Virus record (IMG/VR): IMGVR_UViG_3300032579_000011
Coordinates: 1-64,000 of that record
Strand: one strand, 5' to 3'
Source of the DNA: a virus
DNA: 64,000 nt
Shown here: positions 39,521 to 60,925 of the stretch, in pieces
Numbering within the stretch: position 1 is the stretch's first letter
Layout of the letters: the number at the start of each line of letters is the position of its first letter
The notes under the pieces: generated by a model
Databases searched by the model: none
Told to the model about the DNA's origin: nothing
What the model saw: only the letters and a program-made list of their open reading frames with translations
Program-made: the position numbers and the translations under genes

Positions 39521-39536
39521 GCCCCCTTGGCGGAAT
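39521..39536 (+). pseudogene. 5' stub of a tRNA-Leu-type gene fused to HNH start codon
   Basis: GCCCCCT-TG-GCGGAAT immediately after promoter 39480-39508. Confidence 0.55.
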
Positions 39537-40161
39537 GATAAAATTGAAAAGAATAGCAGAAAATATAGAAACAACAGAATTATGTTCTTACGGATGTGGT
39601 AATATTGCTAGATTCAGAAATGGGTCTAATAAATTGATGTGCGAAATTAGAGCAACAAAATGTCCAGAAATTAGAAGAAAAAATAGTGAAGGTTCTATAA
39701 AAGCGTATCAAAAATATAAAAACATTAACAGATATTTAAATACGTCAGAAGAATCTAAAAGAAAAATGAATTGGAACAAAGAAAAATATAATGCTGATTT
39801 TTCTTATAATGGTAAAGGATCACACAAAAAAGTCTTAATAAAGGAACGAGGTTATAAATGTGAATCTTGTAATTTGTCAGAATGGTTAAACGAACCTATA
39901 CCTCTAGAATTGGAACATTGTGACGGTGATAATCTAAATAATATAAAAAATAATTTATTGTTATTATGTCCAAATTGTCATGCTAAAACAAAGTTTTATA
40001 GAGGTAAAAACATAAATAATGGTAAAATGAAAGTTTCTGATGAAAAATTATTGACTTCTCTTAAAAAACATAGTAATATAAGACAAGCTTTACTCGAAGT
40101 TGGGTTAACACCCAAAGGTAAAAATTACGATAGAGCTTATAAATTATTAACGCCCGTGTAG
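39535..40161 (+). CDS. HNH endonuclease
   Basis: CESC...LELEHCDGD..NN...LLCPNCH; stop lies within tRNA-Leu. Confidence 0.85.
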   Translation: MIKLKRIAENIETTELCSYGCGNIARFRNGSNKLMCEIRATKCPEIRRKNSEGSIKAYQKYKNINRYLNTSEESKRKMNWNKEKYNADFSYNGKGSHKKVLIKERGYKCESCNLSEWLNEPIPLELEHCDGDNLNNIKNNLLLLCPNCHAKTKFYRGKNINNGKMKVSDEKLLTSLKKHSNIRQALLEVGLTPKGKNYDRAYKLLTPV

Positions 40162-40230
40162 CCCAACAGGTTAGTAGGCAATTGACTTAAAATCAATACA
40201 GTGTGGGTTCGAATCCCACCACGGGCACCA
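40152..40230 (+). tRNA. tRNA-Leu(TAA), short variable loop
   Basis: GCCCGTG/CACGGGC-ACCA; ATTGA-CTTAAAA-TCAAT. Confidence 0.88.
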
Positions 40231-40248
40231 ATTTCTGATCGGAGATAT

Positions 40249-40521
40249 ATGATGAAAGTTATGTTGGAATTGACACCCGAAGCCTTTAGTTCGCTTGAGG
40301 AAACTGTGCTAATCCAAAGTCTAGCAGATTCGGCAAGAACTCTTATCGAAGAGATAGATAGGTTCTTATCTAAGGAGTCGATTCGTCAACATGAAGTAAG
40401 AGACTTACAAGACGATATGATATATCTTGAATGTTTTAAGCGCGTTCTAGAGTATTATACAAGTGACGAACAACGTAAAACTGAGTTTGTTGATATTTTC
40501 GAAGGAGGTAATGATGAATAA
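40249..40521 (+). CDS. Hypothetical protein
   Basis: GGAG RBS. Confidence 0.65.
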   Translation: MMKVMLELTPEAFSSLEETVLIQSLADSARTLIEEIDRFLSKESIRQHEVRDLQDDMIYLECFKRVLEYYTSDEQRKTEFVDIFEGGNDE

Positions 40522-40619
40522 GAAGGCACATAAGAAGTTGATTAAGATGCAGAATAAGTTTGGTAAAGATGCTGGTAAGGCTCTTTGGATTCTAATGAAG
40601 AAGAATGGAGAACTGTAAC

Positions 40620-40709
40620 ATGAGTCATCCGCATAAGAATCGCCCGCGTAAGGGTCGCCGTAAGGTTGGTTCTAAGAAGCGCAGGGCACGACGTAATCGT
40701 AAGAGGTAG
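40620..40709 (+). CDS. 29-aa highly basic peptide
   Basis: MSHPHKNRPRKGRRKVGSKKRRARRNRKR; GGAG RBS. Confidence 0.55.
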   Translation: MSHPHKNRPRKGRRKVGSKKRRARRNRKR

Positions 40710-40733
40710 TCTCTAATTTTTTAAAGGTGTAAA

Positions 40734-41222
40734 ATGAAAGAGTTTGATCTTAAGGAAGTAATTGATTTCATCAAGAATTCTTCTAACGAGACAAAGATTT
40801 ATATCGGCGCTGATTCCGAACGTTATCGTAAGAATGAGGTTTGGTATGCTGATTATACTGTGGCTGTTGTTGTTCATATTGATGGCAACAAGGGTTGTAA
40901 GGTATTTGGTAAGTCAGATGTAGAACGTGATTTTGATCAGAAGAAAGAAAAGCCAGCTTTTCGTCTGATGAACGAAGTTTATCGTGCTGCTCAGATGTAT
41001 ATCGACCTTGCCGAAGCCATTGGTGATCGTCATTTCGAGTTGCACCTTGATATCAATCCAAACGAAATGCATGGTTCGTCTTGTGTTATCACACAGGCAA
41101 CTGGTTATATTCGTGGTATGTGTGGTGTTACTCCAAAGGTTAAGCCAGAGGCACCAGCAGCTTCATTTTGTGCTGATCGTTTGAAGGAAATTCTAACGAA
41201 CAACGAAAGTATTGCTGCTTAA
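40734..41222 (+). CDS. RNase H-like (YkuK/DUF458) protein
   Basis: YIGADS, RLMNEV, HLDIN, VKPEA.AAS..AD. Confidence 0.8.
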   Translation: MKEFDLKEVIDFIKNSSNETKIYIGADSERYRKNEVWYADYTVAVVVHIDGNKGCKVFGKSDVERDFDQKKEKPAFRLMNEVYRAAQMYIDLAEAIGDRHFELHLDINPNEMHGSSCVITQATGYIRGMCGVTPKVKPEAPAASFCADRLKEILTNNESIAA

Positions 41223-41229
41223 ATAATAC

Positions 41230-41262
41230 AGGCGCGTAGCTTAAAGGTGAAGCCGGTCGCTC
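41230..41262 (+). pseudogene. 5' half of a tRNA truncated in the anticodon loop (CT-C.., probably CAT)
   Basis: AGGCGCG-TA-GCTT-AAAGGTG-AAGC-C-GGTCG-CTC then AT-rich insert. Confidence 0.7.
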
Positions 41263-41313
41263 TTTAAAATTTAATTTTTATAAATACTTCTATAATTAAT
41301 AGGAGTATTTTAT

Positions 41314-42000
41314 ATGAAATGTAAATTCTGCAATCAATTAAAGAAAAATTTGAATTCTTTAAGAAATCATGAGAGACTATGTAAAGAAAATACAAATAAA
41401 GAAAAAACTTGGATTCAAAAACGAAAAGAAGCGGGAATAGAAATTAAATTTGATTTTCATCAATCGCCTGAATATAAAGAAAAACAAAGACAAAAAAGAT
41501 TATTGTGTCCTCCCGCTTCTTTAGAACAAAGACAAAAAGCTTCTATAAAAACAAAAGAATACTATTCTAATCCTGAAAATAGAAAAAAACATTCAAAAAT
41601 AATGAAAAAGGCGGTATTAGAACACCCAGAATCTTATTCTGATAAAAACATAGTTGGAAGATCAAAACATTTTACAATCGATGGTGTTAGATTTAATAGC
41701 ACTTGGGAATATGAAGTTGCAAAATTTTTAGATAAAAATAATATTAAATGGATCAGAAGTAATATAAAACCAATTTCTTATTTTTGGAATGATGATTGGC
41801 ATTTATATTTTCCAGATTTTTTAATTGAAGAATATAATTGTTATATTGAAGTAAAGGGATATGAAACAGATCGTGATAGGGCTAAATGGAGCCAATTAGA
41901 TAAAAAAATATTAGTAATCAAACAAAAAGAAATTGACTTAATAAAAAAACAGAATTATGATATAATTAGTAAATTATCGTCCTATAGCTCAATCGGTTAG
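41314..42000 (+). CDS. Zn-finger + PD-(D/E)xK endonuclease
   Basis: CKFC...H...C; STWE...YFPDF...IEVKG; stop lies within tRNA-Ile. Confidence 0.8.
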   Translation: MKCKFCNQLKKNLNSLRNHERLCKENTNKEKTWIQKRKEAGIEIKFDFHQSPEYKEKQRQKRLLCPPASLEQRQKASIKTKEYYSNPENRKKHSKIMKKAVLEHPESYSDKNIVGRSKHFTIDGVRFNSTWEYEVAKFLDKNNIKWIRSNIKPISYFWNDDWHLYFPDFLIEEYNCYIEVKGYETDRDRAKWSQLDKKILVIKQKEIDLIKKQNYDIISKLSSYSSIG

Positions 42001-42053
42001 AGCAGGCGCCTTATAAGCGTCAGATCTGGGTTCAATTCCCGGTAGGACAACCA
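41978..42053 (+). tRNA. tRNA-Ile(TAT)
   Basis: GGCGC-CTTATAA-GCGTC; CCA end; C1:A72 mismatch. Confidence 0.8.
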
Positions 42054-42073
42054 CTATTTTGAAAGTCTACATC

Positions 42074-42442
42074 ATGAAATATTTGTATCTTTTGCCGATT
42101 TTCTTTTTCCTTGGCGGCTGTCAAACTACAAATTCTTATCCTATAAATAAAATTACCGCTCAAAAAAGCGGTATTGTTGCCTCCTGGTATTCTTCTGGTC
42201 GAAGAACTGCCAGCGGTCAACATTTCGATCCAAATGGATATTCTGTCGCTCATCGTACCCTACCATTTGGAACTCAACTCAAACTGACTAATCCGAATAA
42301 TGGAAAGTCCATAGTTGCTATTGTCAATGACAGGGGTCCATTCGTAAGAGGGACGGGGTTGGACGTTACAAGAGGCGGTGCTCAAAAACTTGGTTTTATT
42401 AGTCAAGGTAAAACTAGATTGATAATGGAAGTTTTGAGATAA
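42074..42442 (+). CDS. RlpA-like lytic transglycosylase lipoprotein
   Basis: Lipobox LGGC; ASWY, AHRTLPFGT, VNDRGPF. Confidence 0.9.
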   Translation: MKYLYLLPIFFFLGGCQTTNSYPINKITAQKSGIVASWYSSGRRTASGQHFDPNGYSVAHRTLPFGTQLKLTNPNNGKSIVAIVNDRGPFVRGTGLDVTRGGAQKLGFISQGKTRLIMEVLR

Positions 42443-42482
42443 TATATTTCTCTTAATAGCGACGTAAACAAAAGGAAAAGTA

Positions 42483-43124
42483 ATGAAAAAGCTTATATTT
42501 TCACTAGTAGCAATGCTAGTTAGTATTGGCGTAGTTTCTACAGCTAATGCTAGACCAAGACATAAGAGACATCATTATCATCATGTTGTAGTATACAAGC
42601 ATAAAAACAAAAAAGTGAATATGGTGATTGGTCAAAAACAAGAACCGCAAATATATTATTCGAATGATGACAATAGTCCAGCCGCATTTTTTGCGAAAGA
42701 TAGAGCAAGAAATGTAGTTGAAACTCTTGATAATAACAAAAGAAAGACCCAAGAACATTTTGGGTTTATCGAACAGTCGATCAGACAAGGAAACGGTTTG
42801 GCTAATAAAGCATTAAGATATGTTGGTGCAACAGCTAGACAACTAGGACTTCCTCGTAGCCTTTGGTGTGCTGATTTCATGAATATGATCACACATTCTG
42901 GTAATGATCGAACTGCTATGTCATATAAACACAGGGGACAACCAGCATCTTATGGTTGTGTTAACTGTGTTGCCGTAACAACTCGTCGAGGCGGTGGTCA
43001 CGTCGGGGTTGTTTCTGGTTATGATAAACATGGTAATCCTATTTTGATTTCGGGAAACCATGGCAGAAAAGTCGGTGTTGGTACTTATGCTAGAAGCAGA
43101 GTAGTAGCATACAGATATATATAA
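42483..43124 (+). CDS. Secreted CHAP/NlpC-like (TIGR02594-like) protein
   Basis: Signal peptide; LWCADFMN...GGHVGVV...ISGN. Confidence 0.75.
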   Translation: MKKLIFSLVAMLVSIGVVSTANARPRHKRHHYHHVVVYKHKNKKVNMVIGQKQEPQIYYSNDDNSPAAFFAKDRARNVVETLDNNKRKTQEHFGFIEQSIRQGNGLANKALRYVGATARQLGLPRSLWCADFMNMITHSGNDRTAMSYKHRGQPASYGCVNCVAVTTRRGGGHVGVVSGYDKHGNPILISGNHGRKVGVGTYARSRVVAYRYI

Positions 43125-43125
43125 T

Positions 43126-43150
43126 GGGGTGGGAGAAATCCCACCCTTTT
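43126..43150 (+). terminator. Rho-independent terminator
   Basis: GGGTGGGA-GAAA-TCCCACCC-TTTT. Confidence 0.8.
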
Positions 43151-43165
43151 AATTTGGAGTTTGTT

Positions 43166-43354
43166 ATGACAACAGAAGAATTAGTTAAATCAGCTGACCT
43201 TAATTGGTGCGTAGACATTCTTAAAAGAATAGAAAGTATAACTAACCGTTTTCCGAGCACTCAGAATGGTTATGCAGTCATAGATTATTCGGATATTGAC
43301 CAAATTAAATACCTTGTAAAAATGGGGCTAAAGGTGGTTAAAGAAGATGAATGA
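43166..43354 (+). CDS. Hypothetical protein
   Basis: GGAG RBS. Confidence 0.55.
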   Translation: MTTEELVKSADLNWCVDILKRIESITNRFPSTQNGYAVIDYSDIDQIKYLVKMGLKVVKEDE

Positions 43355-43514
43355 CTTGACTTTTGAACCGTATCAGGTTATACTAAGTAAGGTTATGAAG
43401 GAGATATAATATGAAAAGCGATCTAGAACTGCTTGTTGAATATGATATGTTTATTTTGGGATTTGATTCCTCAAATTCTGAGGATATTAAGAAATATTGG
43501 GAGATTATGCTAGG

Positions 43515-43778
43515 ATGAACGTTACAATATATACTAAATCGAATTGTAAATTCTGCGTTAATTCTAAGATGCTACTTAGCTCTAAAGGAATTAATTATAC
43601 AGAACTAAAGTTAGACGAAGATTTTTCTAGAGAAAGCCTTTTGGAAATTTTTCCGAACGCGAAATCTTTTCCTGTTGTTGTTATAGATGGTTTCAACATT
43701 GGCGGGTTTGAAAATCTTAAAAAGTATCTAACTGAAGAAACACAGGATAATCGTAAACTTTTGAATGAGGGAATTTAA
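43515..43778 (+). CDS. Glutaredoxin
   Basis: CKFC, SFPVV, IGGF. Confidence 0.9.
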   Translation: MNVTIYTKSNCKFCVNSKMLLSSKGINYTELKLDEDFSRESLLEIFPNAKSFPVVVIDGFNIGGFENLKKYLTEETQDNRKLLNEGI

Positions 43779-43779
43779 T

Positions 43780-44043
43780 ATGATTAATCGCGACGATCTT
43801 TTGAACGATCTACGTATGTACGTGATTGAAGTTCAGTTTAATAAAGTTAACGGCGAACAGCGCACAATGCGTTGTACTCTAAGGCCTGATCTTTTGCCTC
43901 CAAAGTATAATATCAATGAAGATCATAAATTTCATAGGGAAAATACCGACGTTATTGCTGTTTGGGATATCCTTAACAACGGTTGGCGTTCTTTCCGTGT
44001 AGATTCCGTAACTTACGTTCAGAACGTGAGCCACAATTACTGA
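43780..44043 (+). CDS. WYL-like/DUF2693 protein
   Basis: FNKVNGEQRTMRCTL...WRSFRVD. Confidence 0.75.
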   Translation: MINRDDLLNDLRMYVIEVQFNKVNGEQRTMRCTLRPDLLPPKYNINEDHKFHRENTDVIAVWDILNNGWRSFRVDSVTYVQNVSHNY

Positions 44044-44050
44044 GGATAAA

Positions 44051-44335
44051 ATGAAAAAGTTGGTTATAGTCGAATGCATATCTCAACACCGTATTCGTTA
44101 TTGTGTTGAGGTTGAAGATAATATTGATCCTGCTCTTGATGAAGTCGTTAGAGAAAGTGACGCTGAAAATTTTCATGAGTTTAGTCAGCAACATCTCGGC
44201 CAAGTGATCTTTTCTCATAGAGAAATAAATAAAGAAGAATACCTTCGTATGTTCGATGAAGATAGTCCTTATCTAAAGGGATGGCCTGAAGAACAAAAAC
44301 TTAAATACATCAACAGGATTAATTATGATGCATGA
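44051..44335 (+). CDS. Hypothetical protein
   Basis: GAGG RBS; EFSQQHLG. Confidence 0.7.
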   Translation: MKKLVIVECISQHRIRYCVEVEDNIDPALDEVVRESDAENFHEFSQQHLGQVIFSHREINKEEYLRMFDEDSPYLKGWPEEQKLKYINRINYDA

Positions 44336-44771
44336 TGTTATTGTTGATATCGACGGCACCATAGCCGACAATTCCCATAGAGTTCACCATATCCGTAAGT
44401 CTCCCAAAGATTGGAAGTCTTATGAAAAGGGTGTCATGGAAGACGAGCCGCATTTTGACATCATCTATATTCTAGAATCACTTAAAGCTTCTGGTTCGAA
44501 GCTGGTACTCTGTACAGGAAGAATGGAAAACGAGCGAGACGACACCATTAATTGGTTGAGAATGCATTATCTAGACTTTCTTTTTGACAAGCTTTATATG
44601 CGACCACTCAATGATTATAGATCGGATGATGTTGTTAAGAAAGAACTTCTTGACCAGATTCGTAAAGACGGTTATAATCCGACAATAGTATTTGAAGATC
44701 GTCAACGTGTTGTTGATATGTGGAGAACAGAAGGTCTTCGTTGTTTGCAAGTCCAGCCGGGCGATTTTTAA
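44325..44771 (+). CDS. PseT-type HAD 3'-phosphatase
   Basis: DIDGT, CTGR, LYMR...DYRSD..VK, FEDR. Confidence 0.85.
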   Translation: MMHDVIVDIDGTIADNSHRVHHIRKSPKDWKSYEKGVMEDEPHFDIIYILESLKASGSKLVLCTGRMENERDDTINWLRMHYLDFLFDKLYMRPLNDYRSDDVVKKELLDQIRKDGYNPTIVFEDRQRVVDMWRTEGLRCLQVQPGDF

Positions 44772-44836
44772 TAAATAGTTGTGTCAGTCGCGGAGTACCA
44801 GTCCCACTGACTCTATGTCAAACGAAGGACACAGCT

Positions 44837-45444
44837 ATGAATATTTATCACGTTTATGCGTATCTTAGAGAAGAAAACAATACACCATATTATATTGGTA
44901 AAGGTAAGGGTAGAAGAGCTTATAAAAACATACAATAAGCGTTCCAAAAAATAAATCAAAAATTATATTTTATCATAAAAATATAACTAATGAAACCGCT
45001 TGTTTTTTGGAAAAATCTTACATAAAATTATTTGGTAGAAAAGATATTGGAAATGGTATATTATACAATCAAACGGATGGCGGCGATGGCGGCGACACTT
45101 CTAAGAGCGAAAATTATATAAAAGCTAAGACGGAAGGTAAATTTAATGGTCATCGTCATAAAACTTCAGAACAATTAGAAAAAGCTAACATAAAACGTTC
45201 TGTTTCATTATTAGGACATGAAGTATCTTTAGAAACTAAAAAGAAAATTTCAGAAACTAGAAAAAATAAAAAGATACCTAGTCCAAATAAAGGAAAAACA
45301 TTCTCCGAAAACATAAAAGAAAAACTTCGTATTCCTAAAAAGAAATATATTTGTTTTGTTTGTTCAAAAAACATCGGAGGAAAAACAAATCTAATTAGAT
45401 GGCATAATGAAAACTGTAAAATGAAAGGAAATATAAATGAATGA
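44837..45444 (+). pseudogene. Frameshifted GIY-YIG-like/NUMOD3 endonuclease
   Basis: YHVYAYLRE..TPYYIGKG frame stops at 44938; restoring one A in the A5 run 44924-44928 joins it to ...NQTDGGDGG. Confidence 0.75.
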
Positions 45445-45811
45445 TAAATCTTATTGGGGCTATAGCTTACTTTTGGATTGTGCCGAACTCGATCACGGCG
45501 CGATCACGAGTTATGAAAATATTTACAATTTCACTAAGAGACTAGTCAAGGATATCGATATGGTCGCTTACGGCGAGCCGCAGATCGTTGAATTTGGTTC
45601 TGGTAATAAGGCTGGCTATACTTTGGTCCAGCTTATTGAAACATCGAATATTTGTGCTCATTTTGTTCCTGATGACGGAAATGGTGGTAACGCACTTTAC
45701 CTCGATGTTTTTTCATGTAAGGAATATGATGATCAAGTGGTAATCAATTTGGTTAAGGAATTCTTTGGTGCTAAGTATATTAGACCAAACTATTTGACGA
45801 GACAGGCGTGA
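45437..45811 (+). CDS. speD: S-adenosylmethionine decarboxylase-like proenzyme
   Basis: GYTLVQLIETSNICAHF...LDVFSCK. Confidence 0.75.
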   Translation: MNDKSYWGYSLLLDCAELDHGAITSYENIYNFTKRLVKDIDMVAYGEPQIVEFGSGNKAGYTLVQLIETSNICAHFVPDDGNGGNALYLDVFSCKEYDDQVVINLVKEFFGAKYIRPNYLTRQA

Positions 45812-46218
45812 TTACTGGATTTACGTGTGGTACATTTGATATTCTTCATGCTGGTCATTGCGCTATGCTTGAAGAATGTCGTAGTCAATGTGACAGGCTG
45901 ATCGTCGGTCTACAAACCGATCCGACTATCGACAGACCAAAATTAAAAAATAACCCCGTTCAAAGTTTGCTCGAAAGGTTTATACAACTCAAATCTATTC
46001 GTTACGTAGACGAGATATATCCCTACGAGACTGAAGGTGATCTAGAAAATTTACTAAGTATCATAGACATTCAAAAAAGATTTATAGGTTATGATCATTA
46101 CGGGGAAGTACATACTGGTCAAGCTCTTTGTATTCATAGAAATATTGAAATAATTTACAATAAGAGATTCCACCGGTGGAGCTCTTCTAGATTGAGGAAT
46201 AAGTTGAATGAGTTTTAG
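45808..46218 (+). CDS. Cytidylyltransferase-family sugar-phosphate nucleotidyltransferase
   Basis: GTFDILHAGH, LIVGL, ER..L, SSS. Confidence 0.85.
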   Translation: MITGFTCGTFDILHAGHCAMLEECRSQCDRLIVGLQTDPTIDRPKLKNNPVQSLLERFIQLKSIRYVDEIYPYETEGDLENLLSIIDIQKRFIGYDHYGEVHTGQALCIHRNIEIIYNKRFHRWSSSRLRNKLNEF

Positions 46219-46792
46219 TGATAAATACTTTGAAGAAGTAGTTTCTATTGCCGAAGCTATAGATAAAAATATGGTGGAGAAGTTAGTTGCCGCTCTCAAA
46301 AGAGTCAGAGAATCAAACGGGAGGGTTTTCGTTCTCGGTGTTGGAGGATCAGCAGGAAACGCTTCTCACCTGGTCAACGACCTACGTAAGCTTTGTGGTA
46401 TCGAGTCTTATTGCCCCACAGATAACGTTCCAGAGCTTACTGCTAGAACAAATGACGAAGGGTTTGACACCGTATTTGATGAATATCTTAAAATCAGTAA
46501 GTTAAGTTCAAAAGATGCTCTTTTTATTTTATCTGTTGGTGGTGGCGATAAGAATAAAAACGTTTCTGTAGGATTAATTAAGGCCATCGATCAAGCAAAA
46601 TCAAAAAACGCCGTCGTATTGGGTATAGTCGGTAAGAAAGACGGATACACCGCTTACAACGCTGATTATTGTGTAGTAGTTCCTCCTATTCAACCTTCCA
46701 GAATCACGCCACATAGCGAAGCTTTTCAAGCTGTTATTTGGCATGCTATAGTTTCCAATCCTTCTTTACAGGTTAATAAAACAAAGTGGTGA
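46208..46792 (+). CDS. gmhA: Sedoheptulose-7-phosphate isomerase (SIS)
   Basis: GVGGSAGNASH, TARTND.G, E..Q...H. Confidence 0.85.
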   Translation: MSFSDKYFEEVVSIAEAIDKNMVEKLVAALKRVRESNGRVFVLGVGGSAGNASHLVNDLRKLCGIESYCPTDNVPELTARTNDEGFDTVFDEYLKISKLSSKDALFILSVGGGDKNKNVSVGLIKAIDQAKSKNAVVLGIVGKKDGYTAYNADYCVVVPPIQPSRITPHSEAFQAVIWHAIVSNPSLQVNKTKW

Positions 46793-46793
46793 A

Positions 46794-52195: not shown

Positions 52196-52206
52196 TCAGG
52201 ATAAAA

Positions 52207-53605: not shown

Positions 53606-53948
53606 ACATAAAAATTAATAACACGAAAATTAAAACTCCCCAAAAATATTTCGATGAGATCAAAGAATTCAAAGCTTCTGTTTCGGCTTTGGATAATTTC
53701 TTTGATCTCATTTTTTTGTATTTAATTTTCTTAGGACCAGAAGAAAAAATAGTTTTTCTCATAGTCATACCACCAGCGTGATATGTTTGTGTTAGTTTAG
53801 TTTTTCCGTTTGGAGATTGAGAAATCGTAGTTCTACCATTTTTATTACCAATAGATTGTGAATGGGTAAATCCTTTACCATAATTCGTTGTTGTGGTAAA
53901 TCTAACTCCGCCAGGACCTTTTATTGTTCTTTTAACCCAGTTTGCCAT
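53595..53948 (-). CDS. Basic protein with C-terminal TM helix
   Basis: Late promoter plus GGAG RBS hairpin. Confidence 0.65.
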   Translation of the reverse strand: MANWVKRTIKGPGGVRFTTTTNYGKGFTHSQSIGNKNGRTTISQSPNGKTKLTQTYHAGGMTMRKTIFSSGPKKIKYKKMRSKKLSKAETEALNSLISSKYFWGVLIFVLLIFMFMK

Positions 53949-54022
53949 AAAAAATACTCCGGAATGCGCTCCCGGAGTATTTATCTTCGTATTTTAAATG
54001 ATGTATTAAAGTAACAATTTCA

Positions 54023-54379
54023 TTACTGAACAAACACACCAGTAACTTTAACAACCTGACCGTTAGGCAGTACTACGTTAGCGACAACAGGTGCATTAGA
54101 TTTACGTACAGCGCCTGCCTTAACAGGAGCGGCTGGTGTTACTGAAGCATTCTTAACAGCAGCACAAATAGCGTTAGCAATAGAATTTGCATCAGTGGTT
54201 ACGTTAGATGATACATTAGGAATCATTCCAGCAAGTTCAACAGCGGTTGGAATGAATTGACAAGCCTGAAGAGTTGCCGCTTGAATCTGTGCAGCAGTGA
54301 TAGTTGTTCCCGCAACATTACAACCAGCCAAAGCTAATCCTGATACTAATACTGTTCCAATTAAAATATTCTTGTTCAT
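54023..54379 (-). CDS. Lipoprotein
   Basis: Lipobox LALAGC; GGAG RBS. Confidence 0.7.
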   Translation of the reverse strand: MNKNILIGTVLVSGLALAGCNVAGTTITAAQIQAATLQACQFIPTAVELAGMIPNVSSNVTTDANSIANAICAAVKNASVTPAAPVKAGAVRKSNAPVVANVVLPNGQVVKVTGVFVQ

Positions 54380-54939
54380 TTAGATTCTCCTATATATTGT
54401 TGATAAATTTTTTGTTCTGTTGGGTCTAATTCTTGACCATCTTTTAATTTTTGAATAATCACCATCATTTCAGCGTCCATCGGCGTTGTGTTTTTACCTA
54501 AAAACACCAAAATATCCAATATTTTTAAAACTGGTGCTGATAGAGGAACAAATGGCGAAATAAGTTTAGCTATATCGTCTATTAATGAACTACCAGCAAG
54601 AAATGGGTTGTTTCCCATTAATGCATCTTTTATGCCTTTCCAATCTATTCCTTCTGCTATTAGAATAGACTGAATAATTTTCTTAATATCTAATTTTTCA
54701 GAATTTGATTTTGGATAACTGTCGGCAAATCCAGCCAACATTTTAATTACTGCCTCGGCAACATTTGCTTGAGGAACAAAAGGTTTTGCAATTTCAAAAG
54801 CATCTTCCAAAGAAACAACACCTAATCCTAACCAATCTGAATTTTGAAATTTTTGACGTAATTCAAACCAATTAAGATTAGATGCAATTTGAATAGCGTT
54901 TTTTAAATTCGCTATTGTTTGATCGTCTATATTAATCAT
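54376..54939 (-). CDS. Hypothetical protein with internal duplication
   Basis: Two similar halves (..IAKPFVP.. / ..LISPFVP..); ATGA coupling. Confidence 0.6.
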   Translation of the reverse strand: MINIDDQTIANLKNAIQIASNLNWFELRQKFQNSDWLGLGVVSLEDAFEIAKPFVPQANVAEAVIKMLAGFADSYPKSNSEKLDIKKIIQSILIAEGIDWKGIKDALMGNNPFLAGSSLIDDIAKLISPFVPLSAPVLKILDILVFLGKNTTPMDAEMMVIIQKLKDGQELDPTEQKIYQQYIGESK

Positions 54940-55133
54940 TTACTTGCTGGAGTTTCAGGCATAACAATAGCTAGAAGTCCGCCAACAGCAACACCAACAG
55001 CAATTATACTATCTCCCAAAGCACCGGGGAATAATGTATGTATTGATACTGCCACTAGTCCGCCGCCAGCCCATGTGCTAGGCTCTTTAACTCTATCTGC
55101 TACCCATACAAGTGCTTTAATAACTTTATCCAT
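54936..55133 (-). CDS. Small 2-TM holin-like protein
   Basis: RVKEPSTWAG plus two TM helices; GGAGG RBS; late promoter upstream. Confidence 0.55.
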   Translation of the reverse strand: MDKVIKALVWVADRVKEPSTWAGGGLVAVSIHTLFPGALGDSIIAVGVAVGGLLAIVMPETPASK

Positions 55134-55192
55134 TATAACCTCCATATTTTTATTACCCAAAGGGCCATTCTTATTTATAAAATATGGATATT

Positions 55193-55220
55193 AAAAAAGG
55201 GCGGGGATGAACCCACCCTT
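55193..55220 (-). terminator. Rho-independent terminator after DUF2828 gene
   Basis: AAGGGTGGG-TTCATC-CCCGCCCTTTTTT on - strand. Confidence 0.8.
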
Positions 55221-55230
55221 AATTAGAAAT

Positions 55231-56664
55231 TTAGAAGTCGTAGCGATCAGACATTAATGTCTTAAGCATGATCGCCTCCGGAGTAAAGTCCTCCAAATCA
55301 GCAGCCAACACCGACTTAACGATAGTTGGAGAGAAACCAGAAACAAGAGCAACGCCTCGTTCATCGAACTTAACAGGCACATTTTCATGTGCATTCAAGT
55401 TCCAGAAAACGATGTTAGGCATATTGTAAGCATGATAGATATACTTACGAGCAATCATTTCCATAGCAGAGTCATCGTGAGTAGTGCACTGATCAAACTG
55501 CATGTCCGAAAGAATCAGCAGCATTGCAGGCATTTCTGACTGAGGAACATTACCTTCAATTGCAGTGAGAAGGATTTTATCCAGCGCGAGATGCAGGTTA
55601 GTGTTCATGTCCCACTTCGAAGTTACCATCTGCTTAACCTTATCGAGGATGTTACCACGAAGATGAAGCAGCTCAGGCTTGCCAGAGAAAGTCAAGAACG
55701 TATCCTTAAACTTACCAGTGTTCTTTTCAGCAAGGTAAAGACCAAGAGAAACAGAAACGTCAAGGCAAGTTACCTTCGACTTGGAGTTATAGCCACCAGC
55801 AGGTGAAGTCATTGAACCAGAAACGTCAACGAGCGGAAGGATGTTTGCATCACCAACAAAGTTAGGAAGATCATCCCACTGAGCACGAATGTGATCGAGG
55901 TTCGACTGATTATATGACGCATTGTAACCGTAAGGAGAAACACCCTTCAGCACATCATACGGATAAACCGCACCAGCATTGACCTTGACAGTCTTTGCTA
56001 CTTCAGGATCCTTCGAAACAAGAGCAGTAGTCCACTCCTTATACTTCTCAGTGTGACGTGAGAAAGCCTTCTTATATCTAGAAGAAGCAAGCGAAGGAAC
56101 ATGGTTGAAATTAATTTCATCCCAATTCTTAGCGCACATGTCCTGCTCAACAACCTTGGTCAAGCTAACCAGTGTCTTACGATACTGCTTAGGTGACATT
56201 CCAAGGAACGAACGAAGTTCAGCGGCTTCCTTACCCTTACGTGGCATCCACTTAGCAGCAAGACCATTCTTGGCTTCAAGAGCATCACGAACCATCGCAA
56301 ATGCGATCTGACGCAAATCACCCTTGGTAACAAAGATATCGTCCCAACGTCCAAGCTCGGGAACACGCTTCAAAAGACGCTCCGCATATGCAGGATCATG
56401 ATCACAAGCATATTCTAGAATATCCCGGAAAATCTTACGCTCACCAGCGCCTCCGCGAATATCACGCGCCCAAAGAACAACACGGCCAGCCAATTCCTTA
56501 TCTTGAACATAAGCTGCCGTAAAGTCAGGAATTACGTTCTTACCGCGAGATGCACCAATCTTATAGAAAAGATCAGTAACTGAATTGGCAGTAGACTTAC
56601 GAGCCTTCATACCATTAGTAGTACGAGCAGTCTGGTTCTTAACGGCATTAACAAATGTTGACAT
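55231..56664 (-). CDS. DUF2828-type protein (TROVE/Ro60-like helical domain + vWA)
   Basis: RDIRGGAGER, GRWDD, AAKWMPR, MIDAS DVSGSM, SDMQFD, VFWNL. Confidence 0.8.
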   Translation of the reverse strand: MSTFVNAVKNQTARTTNGMKARKSTANSVTDLFYKIGASRGKNVIPDFTAAYVQDKELAGRVVLWARDIRGGAGERKIFRDILEYACDHDPAYAERLLKRVPELGRWDDIFVTKGDLRQIAFAMVRDALEAKNGLAAKWMPRKGKEAAELRSFLGMSPKQYRKTLVSLTKVVEQDMCAKNWDEINFNHVPSLASSRYKKAFSRHTEKYKEWTTALVSKDPEVAKTVKVNAGAVYPYDVLKGVSPYGYNASYNQSNLDHIRAQWDDLPNFVGDANILPLVDVSGSMTSPAGGYNSKSKVTCLDVSVSLGLYLAEKNTGKFKDTFLTFSGKPELLHLRGNILDKVKQMVTSKWDMNTNLHLALDKILLTAIEGNVPQSEMPAMLLILSDMQFDQCTTHDDSAMEMIARKYIYHAYNMPNIVFWNLNAHENVPVKFDERGVALVSGFSPTIVKSVLAADLEDFTPEAIMLKTLMSDRYDF

Positions 56665-56686
56665 TTCACTTCTCCTTTGTTATCAA

Positions 56687-56742
56687 CAGATTGAACTTTT
56701 TTCTATTTTGCATATAGATTTTATTATTGCTGAACTCAATCT
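56687..56742 (-). ncRNA. CAGCA tRNA-like RNA unit 3 (56 nt)
   Basis: AGATTGA/TCAATCT-G stem, GTTCAGCA, TCTAT-ATGCAAA-ATAGA stem-loop. Confidence 0.7.
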
Positions 56743-56750
56743 TAATTAAA

Positions 56751-56814
56751 CAGTATCACTTTTTGCTTTTTTTGATTACAAGTCAAATGCATTTTGGATT
56801 GCTGAAATGATACT
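56751..56814 (-). ncRNA. CAGCA tRNA-like RNA unit 2 (64 nt)
   Basis: AGTATCA/TGATACT-G stem, TTTCAGCA, TTTGA-CTTGTAA-TCAAA stem-loop. Confidence 0.7.
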
Positions 56815-56823
56815 TAAACTTAT

Positions 56824-57042
56824 CAGGTTAGTCGCGGTATTGTGGTCCACCATCCTCCGAAGAGGTTCAGGTTATTACGAGTAACCCCGAAGGATTCTCG
56901 ACCACCCAGTGTTCATCAAAGTTCCCCCATCTTTCGATGGCTAAATCTCAGAAGGAAAGTCAAGCTTTCCAGAAGATGCCTCTAATCACTGCCTTCGCTG
57001 TTATCGCGATTTCAAACATAGGTTGTGTGCTGTATCTAACCT
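56824..57042 (-). ncRNA. CAGCA RNA unit 1 (219 nt, multi-hairpin)
   Basis: AGGTTAG/CTAACCT-G stem, ATACAGCA, GAAA and TTCG tetraloop hairpins. Confidence 0.7.
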
Positions 57043-57057
57043 TAATTCTTATCATTT

Positions 57058-57086
57058 ATAATACCGCGACTTAAGTTAAAAGTCAA
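57058..57086 (-). promoter_or_regulatory. sigma70-type promoter of the CAGCA-RNA/DUF2828 operon
   Basis: TTGACT-N17-TATTAT. Confidence 0.75.
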
Positions 57087-57096
57087 GTAGTATTTT

Positions 57097-57170
57097 TGGT
57101 GCTTCTGCGTGGAATCAAACCACGGTAGATCGATTATCAGTCGATTATTCTATCATTGAATTACAGAAGC
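57097..57170 (-). tRNA. tRNA-Ile(GAT)
   Basis: ATCGA-CTGATAA-TCGAT; CCA. Confidence 0.85.
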
Positions 57171-57176
57171 ATTAAA

Positions 57177-57201
57177 TGGTGCCGGATGAGAGATTCGAAC
57201 C
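57177..57201 (-). pseudogene. 3' fragment of a disrupted tRNA
   Basis: GTTCGAATCTCTC-ATCCGGC-ACCA; acceptor complementary to the fragment at 57440-57465. Confidence 0.7.
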
Positions 57202-57204
57202 GCC

Positions 57205-57350
57205 TAAAATCTCATTTATTATATTTAGACCCTAAAAACGAATATCTTATAAAGACAGATATTAATAAAATTATAAATGCATCAAACCAAAACAATATAT
57301 ATGTAATTGTTATTGGCAAAAAACACATTAATTTAGAGTCAATTAAAGAA
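57205..57350 (+). pseudogene. C-terminal remnant of a PD-(D/E)xK endonuclease
   Basis: YLDPKNEYLI...KI...NNIYVIVI resembles YLDPKNDYLI...KI...NKIKVLIL of ORF 60290-60925. Confidence 0.6.
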
Positions 57351-57351
57351 A

Positions 57352-57425
57352 TGGTAGGGGATAGAGGTAACGCTCCTCTTCTTCCTGCTTGTAAAACAGG
57401 CACTCTACTTTTAAGTTAATCCCCC
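57352..57425 (-). tRNA. tRNA-Val(TAC), atypical T-loop AGCGTTA
   Basis: CCTGT-TTTACAA-GCAGG; CCA. Confidence 0.75.
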
Positions 57426-57439
57426 AAAATTATTTTAGG

Positions 57440-57465
57440 TTGCTCTACCTCTGTGCTAATCCGGC
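57440..57465 (-). pseudogene. 5' fragment of a disrupted tRNA
   Basis: GCCGGAT-TA-GCAC-AGAGGTA-GAGC-A. Confidence 0.7.
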
Positions 57466-57469
57466 GTAT

Positions 57470-57546
57470 TGGCGCGACGGAAGGGAGTCGAACCCTCATT
57501 GCCCTGATTGAAAGTCAGGTTTCCTAGGCCGTTAGAAGACCGTCGC
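57470..57546 (-). tRNA. tRNA-Glu(TTC)
   Basis: CCTGA-CTTTCAA-TCAGG; CCA. Confidence 0.9.
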
Positions 57547-57550
57547 ATAA

Positions 57551-57640
57551 TGGCGGAAAGGGTGAGATTCGAACTCACGGAACCCTTTCAGGTTCGCTAG
57601 TTTTCAAGACTAGAGCCATCAACCACTCGGCCACCTTTCC
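57551..57640 (-). tRNA. tRNA-Ser(TGA)
   Basis: CTAGT-CTTGAAA-ACTAG; long variable arm. Confidence 0.92.
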
Positions 57641-57692
57641 ATTATTCTTTATATAGTATATTCTAAGACTTGTTTAAAGTCAAGCATTATTT

Positions 57693-57768
57693 TGGCACCC
57701 CGTCAAGGACTCGAACCCTGCTCTTCGGTTTTGGAGACCGAAACATCGCCCCTAAATGCTTACGAGGT
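57693..57768 (-). tRNA. tRNA-Trp(CCA)
   Basis: TCGGT-CTCCAAA-ACCGA. Confidence 0.85.
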
Positions 57769-57785
57769 ATTGTTTCTATTTATAA

Positions 57786-57875
57786 TGGCGGAGAGTGAGA
57801 GATTCGAACTCTCGGTAGAGTTTCCCCTACGTCTCGTTAGCAGTGAGGTGCCTTAGACCGCTCGGCCAACTCTCC
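57786..57875 (-). tRNA. tRNA-Ser(GCT)
   Basis: CTGCTAA loop; long variable arm. Confidence 0.88.
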
Positions 57876-57880
57876 ATTAA

Positions 57881-57956
57881 TGGAGCTTCCCCACGGAATC
57901 AAACCGTATCCTCACGTTCTTCAGACGCACGTGCACATCAGTTACACCAGAGAAGC
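57881..57956 (-). tRNA. tRNA-Phe(GAA)
   Basis: TGCGT-CTGAAGA-ACGTG. Confidence 0.8.
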
Positions 57957-57964
57957 ATTAAATT

Positions 57965-58040
57965 TGGATCGGGGAGCAGGGGTCGAACCTGCAGTCTTAC
58001 GGAGTCAAAGGCCGAGATGTTACCATTACACCATCCCCGA
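57965..58040 (-). tRNA. tRNA-Gln(TTG)
   Basis: CTTTGAC loop; CCA. Confidence 0.8.
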
Positions 58041-58053
58041 ACAATTCTTAATT

Positions 58054-58131
58054 TGGTGCCGAGTGGTGGGCGTCGAACCCACTTTAATCAGGATATGAAT
58101 CTGATGCGATAGCCAATACCGCCCCATCGGC
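58054..58131 (-). tRNA. tRNA-Met/Ile2(CAT), bulged acceptor stem
   Basis: TCAGA-TTCATAT-CCTGA. Confidence 0.7.
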
Positions 58132-58146
58132 ATTATTTGTATTTAG

Positions 58147-58222
58147 TGGTACCCGCTCTTGGATTCGAACCAAGTCTACCTGATCCACAATCAAGTGTGC
58201 TGACCAACAACACTAAGCGAGC
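58147..58222 (-). tRNA. tRNA-His(GTG), alphaproteobacterial type
   Basis: CTTGA-TTGTGGA-TCAGG; G1:U72, A73, no G-1. Confidence 0.88.
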
Positions 58223-58227
58223 ATAAT

Positions 58228-58304
58228 TGGTGCCCATGGTAGGACTCGAACCTACAAAACTCGGAGTTTGAAGCCGATACGTATACCAATTCCGTCACAA
58301 GGGC
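58228..58304 (-). tRNA. tRNA-Leu(CAA), short variable loop
   Basis: TCGGC-TTCAAAC-TCCGA; Leu-type D-arm. Confidence 0.8.
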
Positions 58305-58305
58305 T

Positions 58306-58381
58306 TGGCGCTGTTTGAGAGGATCGAACTCCCGACATCCTGATTACTAAACAGGTGCTCTACCAACTGAGCTAAAACAGC
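58306..58381 (-). tRNA. tRNA-Thr(AGT)
   Basis: CCTGT-TTAGTAA-TCAGG; canonical D and T arms. Confidence 0.78.
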
Positions 58382-58388
58382 ATTATAA

Positions 58389-58469
58389 TGGTGCGCCTGG
58401 CAAGACTTGAACTTGCACCCGAAGACCAGTTTCTAAGACTGGCGTGTCTACCTATTCCACCACAAGCGC
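58389..58469 (-). tRNA. tRNA-Leu(TAG)
   Basis: CCAGT-CTTAGAA-ACTGG. Confidence 0.88.
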
Positions 58470-58964
58470 AGATTTTCTTTTTCTCCATGTCATTGTAAAT
58501 GAATGGCAATTTGGGCAAAGACCTTCTAAATTATTTCTATCGTTATTATTCGTATTGCCATCTTTATGTTCTAATTCAAGTTTTATGGGTTGACCTAACC
58601 ACTCAAATATTCCACAGTTATTACATTTAAAGTTTTGTTCTTCAAAAACTCTTCTTCTTTTTTGACCAGAACTAAGATCTTCAAACATTTTTGACAAATA
58701 CAAATTTTCTCTTTTCTTTTTTACTTTTTCTGATATACGGTTTCTAGTTTCTTCATTTATTGCGGAAAGGCGTTTTTCAATATGTTCTTGACTTTGTTTC
58801 TTTCCTTTATTGGATGGAGATCTTCCAATTAATTTTTCACTAACTTTTAAATTAATTTCTTTTCTTTTTGAGAAAGTAGAAAAAGCCGAAGCACATTTTT
58901 TACAACAAAATCTTCCAGAACCATATTCACCTGAATGAGTTTCTTTACAATATTCACATAACAT
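58452..58964 (-). CDS. HNH endonuclease (paralog of 39535)
   Basis: CNNC...LELEHKDG..NN...LCPNCH; stop inside tRNA-Leu(TAG). Confidence 0.85.
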   Translation of the reverse strand: MLCEYCKETHSGEYGSGRFCCKKCASAFSTFSKRKEINLKVSEKLIGRSPSNKGKKQSQEHIEKRLSAINEETRNRISEKVKKKRENLYLSKMFEDLSSGQKRRRVFEEQNFKCNNCGIFEWLGQPIKLELEHKDGNTNNNDRNNLEGLCPNCHSFTMTWRKRKSALVVE

Positions 58965-59021
58965 TTTTGAACCTCCAAAGTAACTTTTATATAAAGTTAT
59001 TTATAAAAGTTCGTTTTTCAG

Positions 59022-59096
59022 TGGAGCGTCGAGCGGGAATCGAACCCGCATCTCTTGGTTGGAAGCCAAGAATAATAACCACTATACTACCGACGC
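59022..59096 (-). tRNA. tRNA-Gly(TCC)
   Basis: CTTGG-CTTCCAA-CCAAG. Confidence 0.9.
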
Positions 59097-59168
59097 GAGC
59101 GGGGAACGAGAATCGAACTCGTACGATTACCTTGGCAAGGTAACAGGCTACCACTACATCACCCCCGC
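59097..59168 (-). tRNA. tRNA-Gly(GCC), no encoded CCA, abuts next tRNA
   Basis: TTACC-TTGCCAA-GGTAA. Confidence 0.85.
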
Positions 59169-59171
59169 ATA

Positions 59172-59238
59172 CTGCTGCTCCGATTCGAACGGCGTTATTC
59201 TCTTGTCGAAATAGTGTTTCCCATCAACACCGACAGCA
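59172..59238 (-). pseudogene. Degenerate tRNA-like element (possibly Val-GAC)
   Basis: TGCTG/CAGCA acceptor, CCG-TTCGAAT-CGG T-arm; poor anticodon stem. Confidence 0.45.
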
Positions 59239-59245
59239 ATTTAAA

Positions 59246-59322
59246 TGGAGGTCAGTGAAGGACTCAAACCCTCAACCTTCGCGTTCGTAGCGCGATGCTC
59301 TATTCAGTTGAGCTAACTGACC
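59246..59322 (-). tRNA. tRNA-Arg(ACG)
   Basis: TCGCG-CTACGAA-CGCGA. Confidence 0.88.
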
Positions 59323-59623
59323 TTTTTCTTTTATTTTTTATTTTTTTCGTAGCTTTCCAAAGCTGTACCCCACTTTTTTCAAGTTTATGAATTTCATTAT
59401 GACAATTTCTACAGACAGGAACTAAATCTATACCTATATGTTCATTTCCAAGACGTTTATATGTTCTATGATGTAAATCTAATGGGACGTTAGACGCTTG
59501 GCAACAATAACAATTCCATTTTCCTTCGCCTTTTATTTGTTTATATAAATTTGAAGAGTAGAAATCTTTTCTCTTTTTTTGCCATTCTTTTGAATTGATA
59601 TAATCATAATATTTCATATACAA
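59300..59623 (-). CDS. Small HNH endonuclease
   Basis: CYCC...LDLHHRTY..LG.E...LVPVCRNCH; stop inside tRNA-Arg. Confidence 0.85.
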   Translation of the reverse strand: MYMKYYDYINSKEWQKKRKDFYSSNLYKQIKGEGKWNCYCCQASNVPLDLHHRTYKRLGNEHIGIDLVPVCRNCHNEIHKLEKSGVQLWKATKKIKNKRKRSVSSTE

Positions 59624-59632
59624 GACTTTCTA

Positions 59633-59707
59633 TGGAGGTGCCTCCCAGAATCGAACTGGGTTCTCAAGGTTTTGCAGACCTGTGCATTGCCATCCTACTC
59701 AGGCACC
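59633..59707 (-). tRNA. tRNA-Cys(GCA)
   Basis: AGGT-CTGCAAA-ACCT; U73. Confidence 0.82.
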
Positions 59708-59905
59708 AATATATTCTATTCTTGGATCACTAGGAGTTGGTTGACCATACCATATGGTTGTATCCATTTCCATAATACGATAGATGCGATATTCTGGATA
59801 ATTTTGTTCAAATAAATTGAAGACATCATTAACAATTTCGACATTACGAACAACACGAGTATGTTGTTTCATATCATAATTATATTGAACGATTACGTCA
59901 GTCAT
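59699..59905 (-). CDS. Hypothetical protein (68 aa) ending inside tRNA-Cys
   Basis: AAAGGA RBS, MTDVIVQY...; TGA at tRNA positions 7-9. Confidence 0.6.
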   Translation of the reverse strand: MTDVIVQYNYDMKQHTRVVRNVEIVNDVFNLFEQNYPEYRIYRIMEMDTTIWYGQPTPSDPRIEYIGA

Positions 59906-59921
59906 ATCAAAATCCTTTAAT

Positions 59922-59997
59922 TGGCTGGGGATCAAGGACTCGAACCTCGGACATCCAGATTCAGAGTCTGGCGTTCTACCAACTGAACTAATCCCCA
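59922..59997 (-). tRNA. tRNA-Gln(CTG)
   Basis: CCAGA-CTCTGAA-TCTGG. Confidence 0.9.
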
Positions 59998-60003
59998 ATA
60001 TAA

Positions 60004-60077
60004 TGGCGATCCTAAAGGGACTCGAACCCTCCTTTACCCGTAGACAGCGGGTAGCCTTCCCTGACGGCAATAGGACC
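60004..60077 (-). tRNA. tRNA-Asp(GTC)
   Basis: ACCCG-CTGTCTA-CGGGT. Confidence 0.82.
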
Positions 60078-60084
60078 ATTAATT

Positions 60085-60157
60085 TGGTTGCGGTCGCTGG
60101 TGACGCTCCAGTTCTCTAGCTTATGAGGCTAGCATGGCACTTTTCCACTACCCCGCA
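60085..60157 (-). tRNA. tRNA-Met(CAT), atypical T-loop AGCGTCA
   Basis: CTAGC-CTCATAA-GCTAG; CCA. Confidence 0.7.
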
Positions 60158-60222
60158 ATAAAATTTATCTAGCAAACAACAAAATCCATTGTACTCGCAT
60201 CATTTTTTGTTTCCTTTTAATA

Positions 60223-60299
60223 TGGTGCTGAAGAAAGGACTCGAACCCTCAACCTTCGCATTACAAGTGCGCTGCTCTACCAATTAAAGCTACTTCAGC
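60223..60299 (-). tRNA. tRNA-Thr(TGT)
   Basis: CGCA-CTTGTAA-TGCG. Confidence 0.9.
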
Positions 60300-60925
60300 A
60301 ATTTAATTATTTCATTCCAACATAGTTGGTTCTTATTCAAGATTAACACTTTAATCTTATTTTGATCACAAACTTTATTTATTTTTTCTTCATCAGAAAA
60401 TCCTAAACTGGGATTATTGTTATTGATCAAATAATCGTTTTTTGGGTCCAAATATATATTATAATCAATCAAATACATATCTGGAGTATATGTTCTATGC
60501 TTACCATTTCTATCAACATAATTAAATTTTTTACAAGTATCCCATCTTATATTATTCTCGTCTAATGATTGTGCAACAATCAATTCATATGTTGAACCAA
60601 GAATTTTATCTTTATATCTTATTCTTCTAGATTGTGAAACGCCACCCAATCCTCTTTCTTTAGCAAGCTTACTCATCTTTATTTTTACAGATTCTGTTTG
60701 ACCTCTTTTTCGATTTGTATCAGCTATTCTTTCTAAAGCTTCTTTGGATATTTTAGGTTTTTGTAAACCTAATTCTTTAGCCTTTTTATATTGATTAGAA
60801 TGTTTTCTGATGCTAAAATCATAAATTCTAATTTTACGATCGGGATTTAATTTACACATTCTTTGATGATTTCTCAAAGAATTATTATTTTTACATTCTT
60901 TATTACAAAAAGTACAAAGTAGCAT
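60290..60925 (-). CDS. Zn-finger + PD-(D/E)xK endonuclease (paralog of 41314)
   Basis: CTFC...NSLRNHQRMC; STYE...YTPDMY...LDPK; stop inside tRNA-Thr. Confidence 0.8.
   Translation of the reverse strand: MLLCTFCNKECKNNNSLRNHQRMCKLNPDRKIRIYDFSIRKHSNQYKKAKELGLQKPKISKEALERIADTNRKRGQTESVKIKMSKLAKERGLGGVSQSRRIRYKDKILGSTYELIVAQSLDENNIRWDTCKKFNYVDRNGKHRTYTPDMYLIDYNIYLDPKNDYLINNNNPSLGFSDEEKINKVCDQNKIKVLILNKNQLCWNEIIKLLK

Follow-up and report, generated by a model that had tools for sequence, protein, structure and literature searches.

Open reading frames that end inside tRNA genes

The window analyzed here is a stretch of 64,000 nucleotides, positions 1-64,000 of the IMG/VR virus record IMGVR_UViG_3300032579_000011. 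Its parent contig (78.9 kb, GC content 36%) comes from a T4-like phage of a freshwater clade whose genomes measure about 160-170 kb. Transfer RNA (tRNA) genes were searched with ARAGORN and then with Rfam family RF00005 as an independent check, and open reading frames (ORFs) were taken from an ORF listing. ARAGORN found 26 tRNAs in the window, and Rfam added two more. Between positions 39,521 and 60,925, six ORFs, five of which code for endonucleases, have their stop codon inside the tRNA gene that follows. A megablast search of both junction regions against 50,697 phage records returned no close relative. The loci that were compared with the window are designated below by L-numbers (L006, L072, L113, L166, L167 and others).

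Two of the six junctions are on the plus strand. An ORF for an HNH endonuclease (39535-40161, 208 aa, GC 27%) has its final 10 nt inside tRNA-Leu(UAA) (40152-40230), and an ORF for a PD-(D/E)xK nuclease resembling T7 endonuclease I (41314-42000, 228 aa, GC 25.5%, with an N-terminal zinc finger) has its final 23 nt inside tRNA-Ile(UAU) (41978-42053). The four others are on the minus strand. A second HNH endonuclease ORF (58452-58964, 170 aa, GC 29%) enters tRNA-Leu(UAG) (58389-58469) by 18 nt. A small HNH ORF (59300-59623, 107 aa if counted from a TTG codon, with a likely ATG start at 59617) enters tRNA-Arg(ACG) (59246-59322) by 23 nt, and is tightly packed between this tRNA and tRNA-Cys(GCA) (59633-59707). 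The latter, found by both ARAGORN and Rfam, is itself entered over 9 nt by an ORF of 68 aa (59699-59905). Finally, a second T7 endonuclease I-like PD-(D/E)xK ORF (60290-60925, 211 aa, GC 26%) has its final 10 nt inside tRNA-Thr(UGU) (60223-60299). The seventh ORF located directly 5' of a tRNA encodes a methyltransferase; it stops 12 nt before tRNA-Asn and does not overlap it.

At all six overlaps the stop codon is made of tRNA nucleotides. It is the TAG formed by T8-A9-G10 in tRNA-Leu(UAA) and tRNA-Thr(UGU), a TAG of the D-loop at positions 16-18 in tRNA-Leu(UAG) and at positions 21-23 in tRNA-Arg(ACG) and tRNA-Ile(UAU), and the TGA formed by T7-G8-A9 in tRNA-Cys. RNase P cleaves at tRNA position +1, so that all six stops, which lie at tRNA positions 7-23, are 3' of its cleavage site. 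These overlaps had been reported by an earlier sequence-only reading of the window, and all of them, with their coordinates and lengths (10, 23, 18, 23, 10 and 9 nt), were recovered from the ARAGORN calls, the ORF list and Rfam.

Could these overlaps be artefacts of wrongly placed tRNA 5' ends or of spurious ORFs? The 68-aa ORF matched no known family in the PHROG search, and it is absent from L167, where tRNA-Gln(CUG) and tRNA-Cys are 7 nt apart; moreover, tRNA-Ile(UAU) has a C1-A72 mismatch. However, ARAGORN and Rfam, two independent programs, place the same six tRNA 5' ends (44-65 bits with RF00005), and the five other ORFs are clearly homologous to nucleases along their length, which makes an annotation artefact exceedingly improbable. 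No intron or ribozyme family was detected by Rfam at the junctions, and the tRNAs are continuous and uninterrupted.

The sequence-only reading had also described five of the six ORFs as endonucleases, three of HNH type and two of PD-(D/E)xK type, and PHROG matches agree with this. Three ORFs match HNH PHROGs, with E-values down to 1.7e-28, and two match the endonuclease family phrog_15137 (E=1.4e-28 and 1.1e-9) or resolvase-like families. Searches of Pfam with single window proteins gave almost no matches, and assignments were obtained from PHROGs and from a family profile. For the PD-(D/E)xK family, an alignment of 8 members exhibits invariant E, D and D residues and a PD...(E/D)xK pattern, and the derived profile matches T7 endonuclease I structures (1m0d, E=2e-9). 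NUMOD3 is present in 3 of the 8 members, C2H2-like zinc fingers occur, and one member matches Pfam Phage_endo_I. The GC content of the nuclease ORFs is 25-29%, versus 36% for the genome.

A T4-type late-promoter motif, TATAAATA, precedes three of the five nuclease ORFs of the window by 28-34 nt. It is found at 41279-41286 on the plus strand, 28 nt before the ATG of the Ile-linked PD-(D/E)xK ORF, and on the minus strand at 58998-59005, 34 nt before the ATG of the Leu(UAG)-linked HNH ORF, and at 60953-60960, 28 nt before the ATG of the Thr-linked PD-(D/E)xK ORF. No space for a terminator is left between the nuclease ORFs and the tRNAs. Of 20 sequencing runs listed, 19 are recorded as DNA; the single RNA library yielded one contig, of 175 nt, across the Thr junction (60191-60365), but a contig alone cannot prove transcription.

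Block replacements and tRNA fossils at the junctions

The history of the Ile junction is visible upon comparison with L006, whose flanking sequences are 99.4% and 98.2% identical to those of the window, and which has an intact tRNA(CAU) at the site. In the window, only the first 33 nt of this resident tRNA, up to the anticodon, are left, as a 5' fossil (41230-41262, plus strand). They are followed by a block of 787 bp that is absent from L006 (41263-42049, plus strand) and contains the TATAAATA motif, the nuclease ORF and the complete tRNA-Ile(UAU). The block takes the place of 38 nt of the resident tRNA(CAU), and the two sequences match again from the terminal ACCA onwards. The incoming tRNA-Ile(UAU) is unrelated to the tRNA(CAU) that it overwrote.

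A second replacement was found at the Leu(UAG) junction. L166 is 98.5-99.4% identical to the window across the main array, except at 58397-59021 (minus strand), the block that contains the promoter motif, the HNH ORF and tRNA-Leu(UAG). At this site L166 has a different HNH gene and a different tRNA-Leu(UAG), only 63% identical to that of the window, whereas identity is 93-100% for the remaining tRNAs of the aligned segments. The L166 block is followed by the last 8 nt of a window-type tRNA-Leu(UAG), a 3' remnant of the other allele. Both Leu(UAG) alleles were found in one lake metagenome. In these replacements the exchanged block always contains the whole downstream tRNA, as in the co-conversion of a nuclease gene with its flanking DNA. 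The comparison of the window with L167 was uninformative in this respect: tRNAs linked and not linked to an ORF could not be separated by their identities, because nearly all tRNAs differ there.

We then searched all loci for tRNA pieces lying outside called tRNAs. In eight independent cases, a 5' tRNA fossil is followed by a TATAAATA-like motif, then by a nuclease ORF and finally by an intact tRNA, and the stop codon is inside this tRNA in seven of the eight. HNH, GIY-YIG and PD-(D/E)xK nucleases are all represented. Fossil and intact tRNA have the same anticodon in seven cases, the eighth being the CAU to UAU change described above. Fossils are only 50-73% identical to the neighbouring intact tRNA, which indicates that the intact copy arrived with the nuclease. 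They end at tRNA positions 24-36, and five of them at positions 33-36. In L072 and L113, the nuclease and its tRNA are flanked by both halves of the old tRNA. We also considered that the incoming DNA might carry only the front end of a tRNA; this was ruled out by the comparison of acceptor stems and by the 3' fossils, which show that the whole tRNA was incoming. Taken together, allele comparisons and fossils strongly support the earlier proposal of a single cassette in which nuclease and tRNA move together.

Similar units were found elsewhere in the clade. A region of L167 (7224-10650), a 90% relative, has four other nuclease ORFs (HNH, GIY-YIG-type, HNH, and one that is possibly decayed), which end 8-30 nt inside tRNA-Ala, tRNA-Gly(UCC), tRNA-Leu(UAG) or tRNA-Arg; same-anticodon 5' fossils are present upstream of two of the four. 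Within the PD-(D/E)xK family, five different tRNAs are found as partners; protein homology stops within 0-2 codons of their position +1, and the tRNA sequence dictates the last 2-6 residues.

Two further observations concern alleles and tRNA pieces of the window. Its near-identity with L166 ends at 62994; beyond this point, up to 63300, tRNA-Pro(UGG) and tRNA-Lys(UUU) are only 78% and 62% identical, which makes this another allele swap, with no nuclease at this place now. Besides, a 28-nt 5' fragment resembling tRNA-Thr(UGU) is present at 57438-57465 (minus strand), a fossil 12 nt upstream of the tRNA at 57355-57425, with no nuclease beside it.

Overlap frequencies and stop-codon frames in the clade

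Compact genomes have many overlapping genes, and we therefore asked how often ORFs run into tRNAs. With a simple gene model of the window genome, six of seven ORF-to-tRNA junctions overlap, compared to 38 of 75 ORF-to-ORF junctions (Fisher test, p=0.12), and the window alone is therefore no better than compaction. The two kinds of junctions differ in overlap length only, because of where tRNAs hold stops. Among 1519 distinct tRNAs, 50% have TAG at positions 8-10, and, depending on which of the three frames enters, a stop occurs in the first 25 nt of 75%, 47% or 23% of them.

The survey was extended to 2250 tRNAs in 153 related loci, junctions being counted per protein cluster and anticodon; the final counts were made on the loci other than the window and its near-identical contigs. 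Overlaps were found at 14 of 26 junctions with nuclease-like ORFs (54%), 14 of 54 with known non-nuclease ORFs (26%) and 18 of 66 with ORFs of unknown function, these classes being assigned partly by PHROG and partly by eye. Nucleases are thus enriched about twofold (odds ratio about 3.3; p=0.02 against known non-nuclease ORFs and p=0.01 against unknown ones). The sequence-only reading had expected overlaps to be commoner than in compact arrays and had called for a survey against non-nuclease genes. The first expectation fails in the window alone but holds clade-wide for nucleases; as for the survey, nucleases do overlap tRNAs twice as often, but about 26% of the non-nuclease ORFs overlap them too, among which are genes for a phosphoesterase, 2OG-Fe(II) oxygenases, epimerases and dCMP deaminase.

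We next examined where the frames that enter a tRNA terminate. For 56 distinct ORFs with 100 or more codons, 51 frames stop within 25 nt, five stop later and none reads through, whereas 29, 14 and 13 would be expected for random frames (p=3e-8). This bias indicates that in-tRNA stops are under selection, and thus that ribosomes reach them. The clade-wide pattern of ORF-tRNA overlap is non-random.

One explanation would be plain compaction, in which ORFs of a dense genome run into the next gene, with neither cassette linkage nor regulation. Since tRNAs hold early stops, the loss of an ORF's own stop would be nearly neutral. Several of the above results fit well: the p-value of 0.12 in the window, the frequency of early stops in the three frames, and the distribution of the stop ends of upstream ORFs, which in the 153 loci pile up between -12 and +23 for ORFs of all kinds, with peaks at +10, +15 and +23. 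In addition, the overlap state is labile, the stop flipping between inside and just outside the tRNA within single families (clusters C6 and C26). Compaction leaves unexplained, however, the twofold enrichment of nucleases, the whole-block swaps and same-anticodon fossils that flank nuclease-tRNA units, and the conserved protein end at +1 of five tRNAs. As a full account of the junctions, we judge it quite unlikely.

A second explanation is that the overlap controls nuclease expression. The stop codon would have been selected to lie 3' of the RNase P site, so that tRNA maturation yields a nonstop messenger RNA (mRNA), cleared by transfer-messenger RNA or ArfA, and a toxic nuclease is kept scarce. 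The geometry makes the nonstop outcome unavoidable for every processed transcript, and the enrichment of overlaps among nucleases is in the expected direction. The idea is not new: maturation of tRNA-Arg was proposed to impair the segB mRNA of phage T4, and the same was suggested for the F-Tfl enzymes of phage T5 (PMC2330249). In the T5 record (AY543070), F-TflI (hegC) indeed ends 14 nt inside tRNA-Ser2, and F-TflII (hegD) 23 nt inside tRNA-Gln2. We had expected segB to overlap tRNA-Arg likewise, but the T4 record places its stop 5 nt upstream. The overlap of about 26% of the non-nuclease ORFs, the flips of the stop within nuclease families and the frame bias, which shows that the in-tRNA stop is reached and important, also weaken RNase P-dependent self-limitation as a nuclease-specific adaptation. 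We consider it unlikely that such control is the reason for the arrangement. In T5, hypothetical ORFs also end inside tRNAs (T5.069 by 24 nt, T5.057 by 6 nt).

A proposed nuclease-tRNA cassette that overwrites resident tRNAs

We favour the interpretation that the tRNA array of this freshwater T4-like phage has been colonized by free-standing homing-endonuclease genes, organized in promoter-nuclease-tRNA cassettes that overwrite resident tRNAs, and we give it a probability of about 0.6. Each cassette would combine a T4-type late-promoter motif with a nuclease ORF and a replacement tRNA that is complete, and would enter or overwrite a resident gene for a tRNA with the same, or an equivalent, anticodon, leaving pieces of the old tRNA behind. 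Cleavage of the resident tRNA genes by these nucleases would probably take place close to the anticodon, as the fossil end points suggest, and the tRNA of the cassette, given its divergence from the fossil, would be a cleavage-resistant allele with the same decoding function. The nuclease ORF would have no stop of its own: it would run to position +1 of the tRNA and terminate at conserved tRNA bases (U8-A9-G10 or the UAG of the D-loop). As nuclease and tRNA share bases, recombination cannot part them, and the absence of a spacer would cost nothing, because the tRNA supplies the stop. Such zero-spacer linkage, together with the general compaction of the genome, is the probable reason for the overlap.

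As for expression, transcripts started at the cassette promoter or further upstream should run through the ORF into the tRNA, and the two would be co-transcribed. Whenever a transcript is matured into a tRNA, cleavage by RNase P at +1 would take its stop codon away, so that one RNA would give either a terminated protein, or a tRNA and a nonstop mRNA. The frame bias shows that the in-tRNA stops are used by ribosomes, termination on unprocessed RNA being the productive route. Competition between processing and termination may lower the nuclease dose, as a consequence rather than a demonstrated reason for the arrangement.

Several points weigh against this interpretation. Of the six junctions of the window, the Ile-UAU one alone has a fossil, Leu-UAG adds a block swap, and no tRNA-Thr fossil was found upstream of the Thr-linked nuclease (60290-60925). 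An alignment of the overwritten tRNA(CAU) with the Ile2, Met and fMet tRNAs of T4 and T5 did not settle whether it decoded AUA. We infer the target site and the immunity of the cassette tRNA from sequence comparisons. The five tRNA partners found at the same junction of one nuclease family are unexplained. Lastly, since a quarter of the non-nuclease ORFs overlap tRNAs, cassette linkage cannot be the only cause of overlap.

Homing nucleases of the free-standing seg/mob type provide the closest framework. The genes of the window belong to homing-endonuclease families, replace one another polymorphically at a given site and are co-converted with their flanks. SegB of T4 cuts inside tRNA genes and causes the tRNA region to be inherited preferentially (Brok-Volchanskaya et al. 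2008, PMC2330249), and like the present nucleases it is a free-standing enzyme encoded in a T4-type tRNA cluster. It differs from them in three respects: the segB gene does not overlap tRNA-Arg, since its stop is upstream of position +1; SegB recognises a T-loop motif, whereas the fossils of the window clade mostly end at the anticodon; and insertion of a replacement tRNA into an older tRNA has not been described for it. F-TflI and F-TflII of T5 are closer in geometry, being encoded by free-standing HNH genes in a phage tRNA array with their stop inside the downstream tRNA; T5 belongs to another phage family (Demerecviridae), and its third enzyme, F-TflIV, has no tRNA after it. Given these precedents, neither the overlap nor the regulatory idea is new. 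The T5 tRNA-Gln2(CUG) overlapped by F-TflII (29344-29419 in L165) is flagged as a pseudogene, and could be an overwritten or decaying partner tRNA.

Two more distant systems are instructive. In animal mitochondria, ORFs abut tRNAs, and excision of the latter leaves an mRNA whose 3' end falls at the stop codon or ahead of it; polyadenylation then completes the stop. The likeness is one of working and not of membership: the stop is completed there, whereas it would be lost here. Homing endonucleases of introns and inteins also resemble the present ones, in that the important gene which the selfish nuclease invades keeps working; here, however, this would be achieved with a whole spare gene and not by splicing. 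Literature searches on phages found no paper describing fossil-flanked cassettes of a nuclease and a replacement tRNA, and an overwriting nuclease-tRNA cassette seems not to have been described previously. We see roughly even odds that these cassettes represent a third kind of homing element that turns over phage tRNA arrays, neither hidden in an intron or intein nor lodged harmlessly between genes, in which a nuclease is joined by a shared stop to a complete, cleavage-immune replacement of its target tRNA and inserts in the resident isoacceptor near the anticodon, HNH, GIY-YIG and PD-(D/E)xK nucleases having converged on this organization.

Such cassettes would explain concretely how tRNA alleles turn over fast in large phages, and how a selfish nuclease can target a useful gene without burdening its carrier. 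They predict cut sites in the anticodon region and immune alleles. The clade also provides dozens of natural constructs for the question raised in 2008, RNase P processing versus termination at an in-tRNA stop. For annotation, half-tRNAs beside nucleases and ORFs ending in tRNAs should be regarded as real features and not as errors.

Some other features of the array were observed. The two tRNAs found only by Rfam are on the minus strand, at 57355-57425 (50.2 bits) and 62972-63052 (41 bits), the second being 94% identical to tRNA-Tyr(GUA) of a relative. A sub-threshold tRNA-like element (60089-60156, minus strand, 21 bits) with a CAT anticodon-like loop lies between tRNA-Thr and tRNA-Asp. The spacer between tRNA-Gly(GCC) and tRNA-Arg (59169-59245, minus strand) contains a T-loop-like motif, GTTCGAATC, and complementary ends, and is called by neither ARAGORN nor Rfam. 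Between tRNA-Ala and the promoter motif of the Thr cassette, a spacer of 435 nt (60961-61396, minus strand) is free of ORFs and richer in GC; it is partly conserved in L167 (69%) and may be a structured RNA.

Further insertions and deletions are found among relatives that are 96-99% identical. A segment of 675 bp (44776-45450), with an ORF at 45007-45444, is absent from L004 and L006. Conversely, about 980 bp with two ORFs are present in L004 and L005, and not in the window, between 40708 and 40723. Finally, 69 bp of the window (43355-43423) correspond in L006 to a 266-bp insert with a GC content of 22%.

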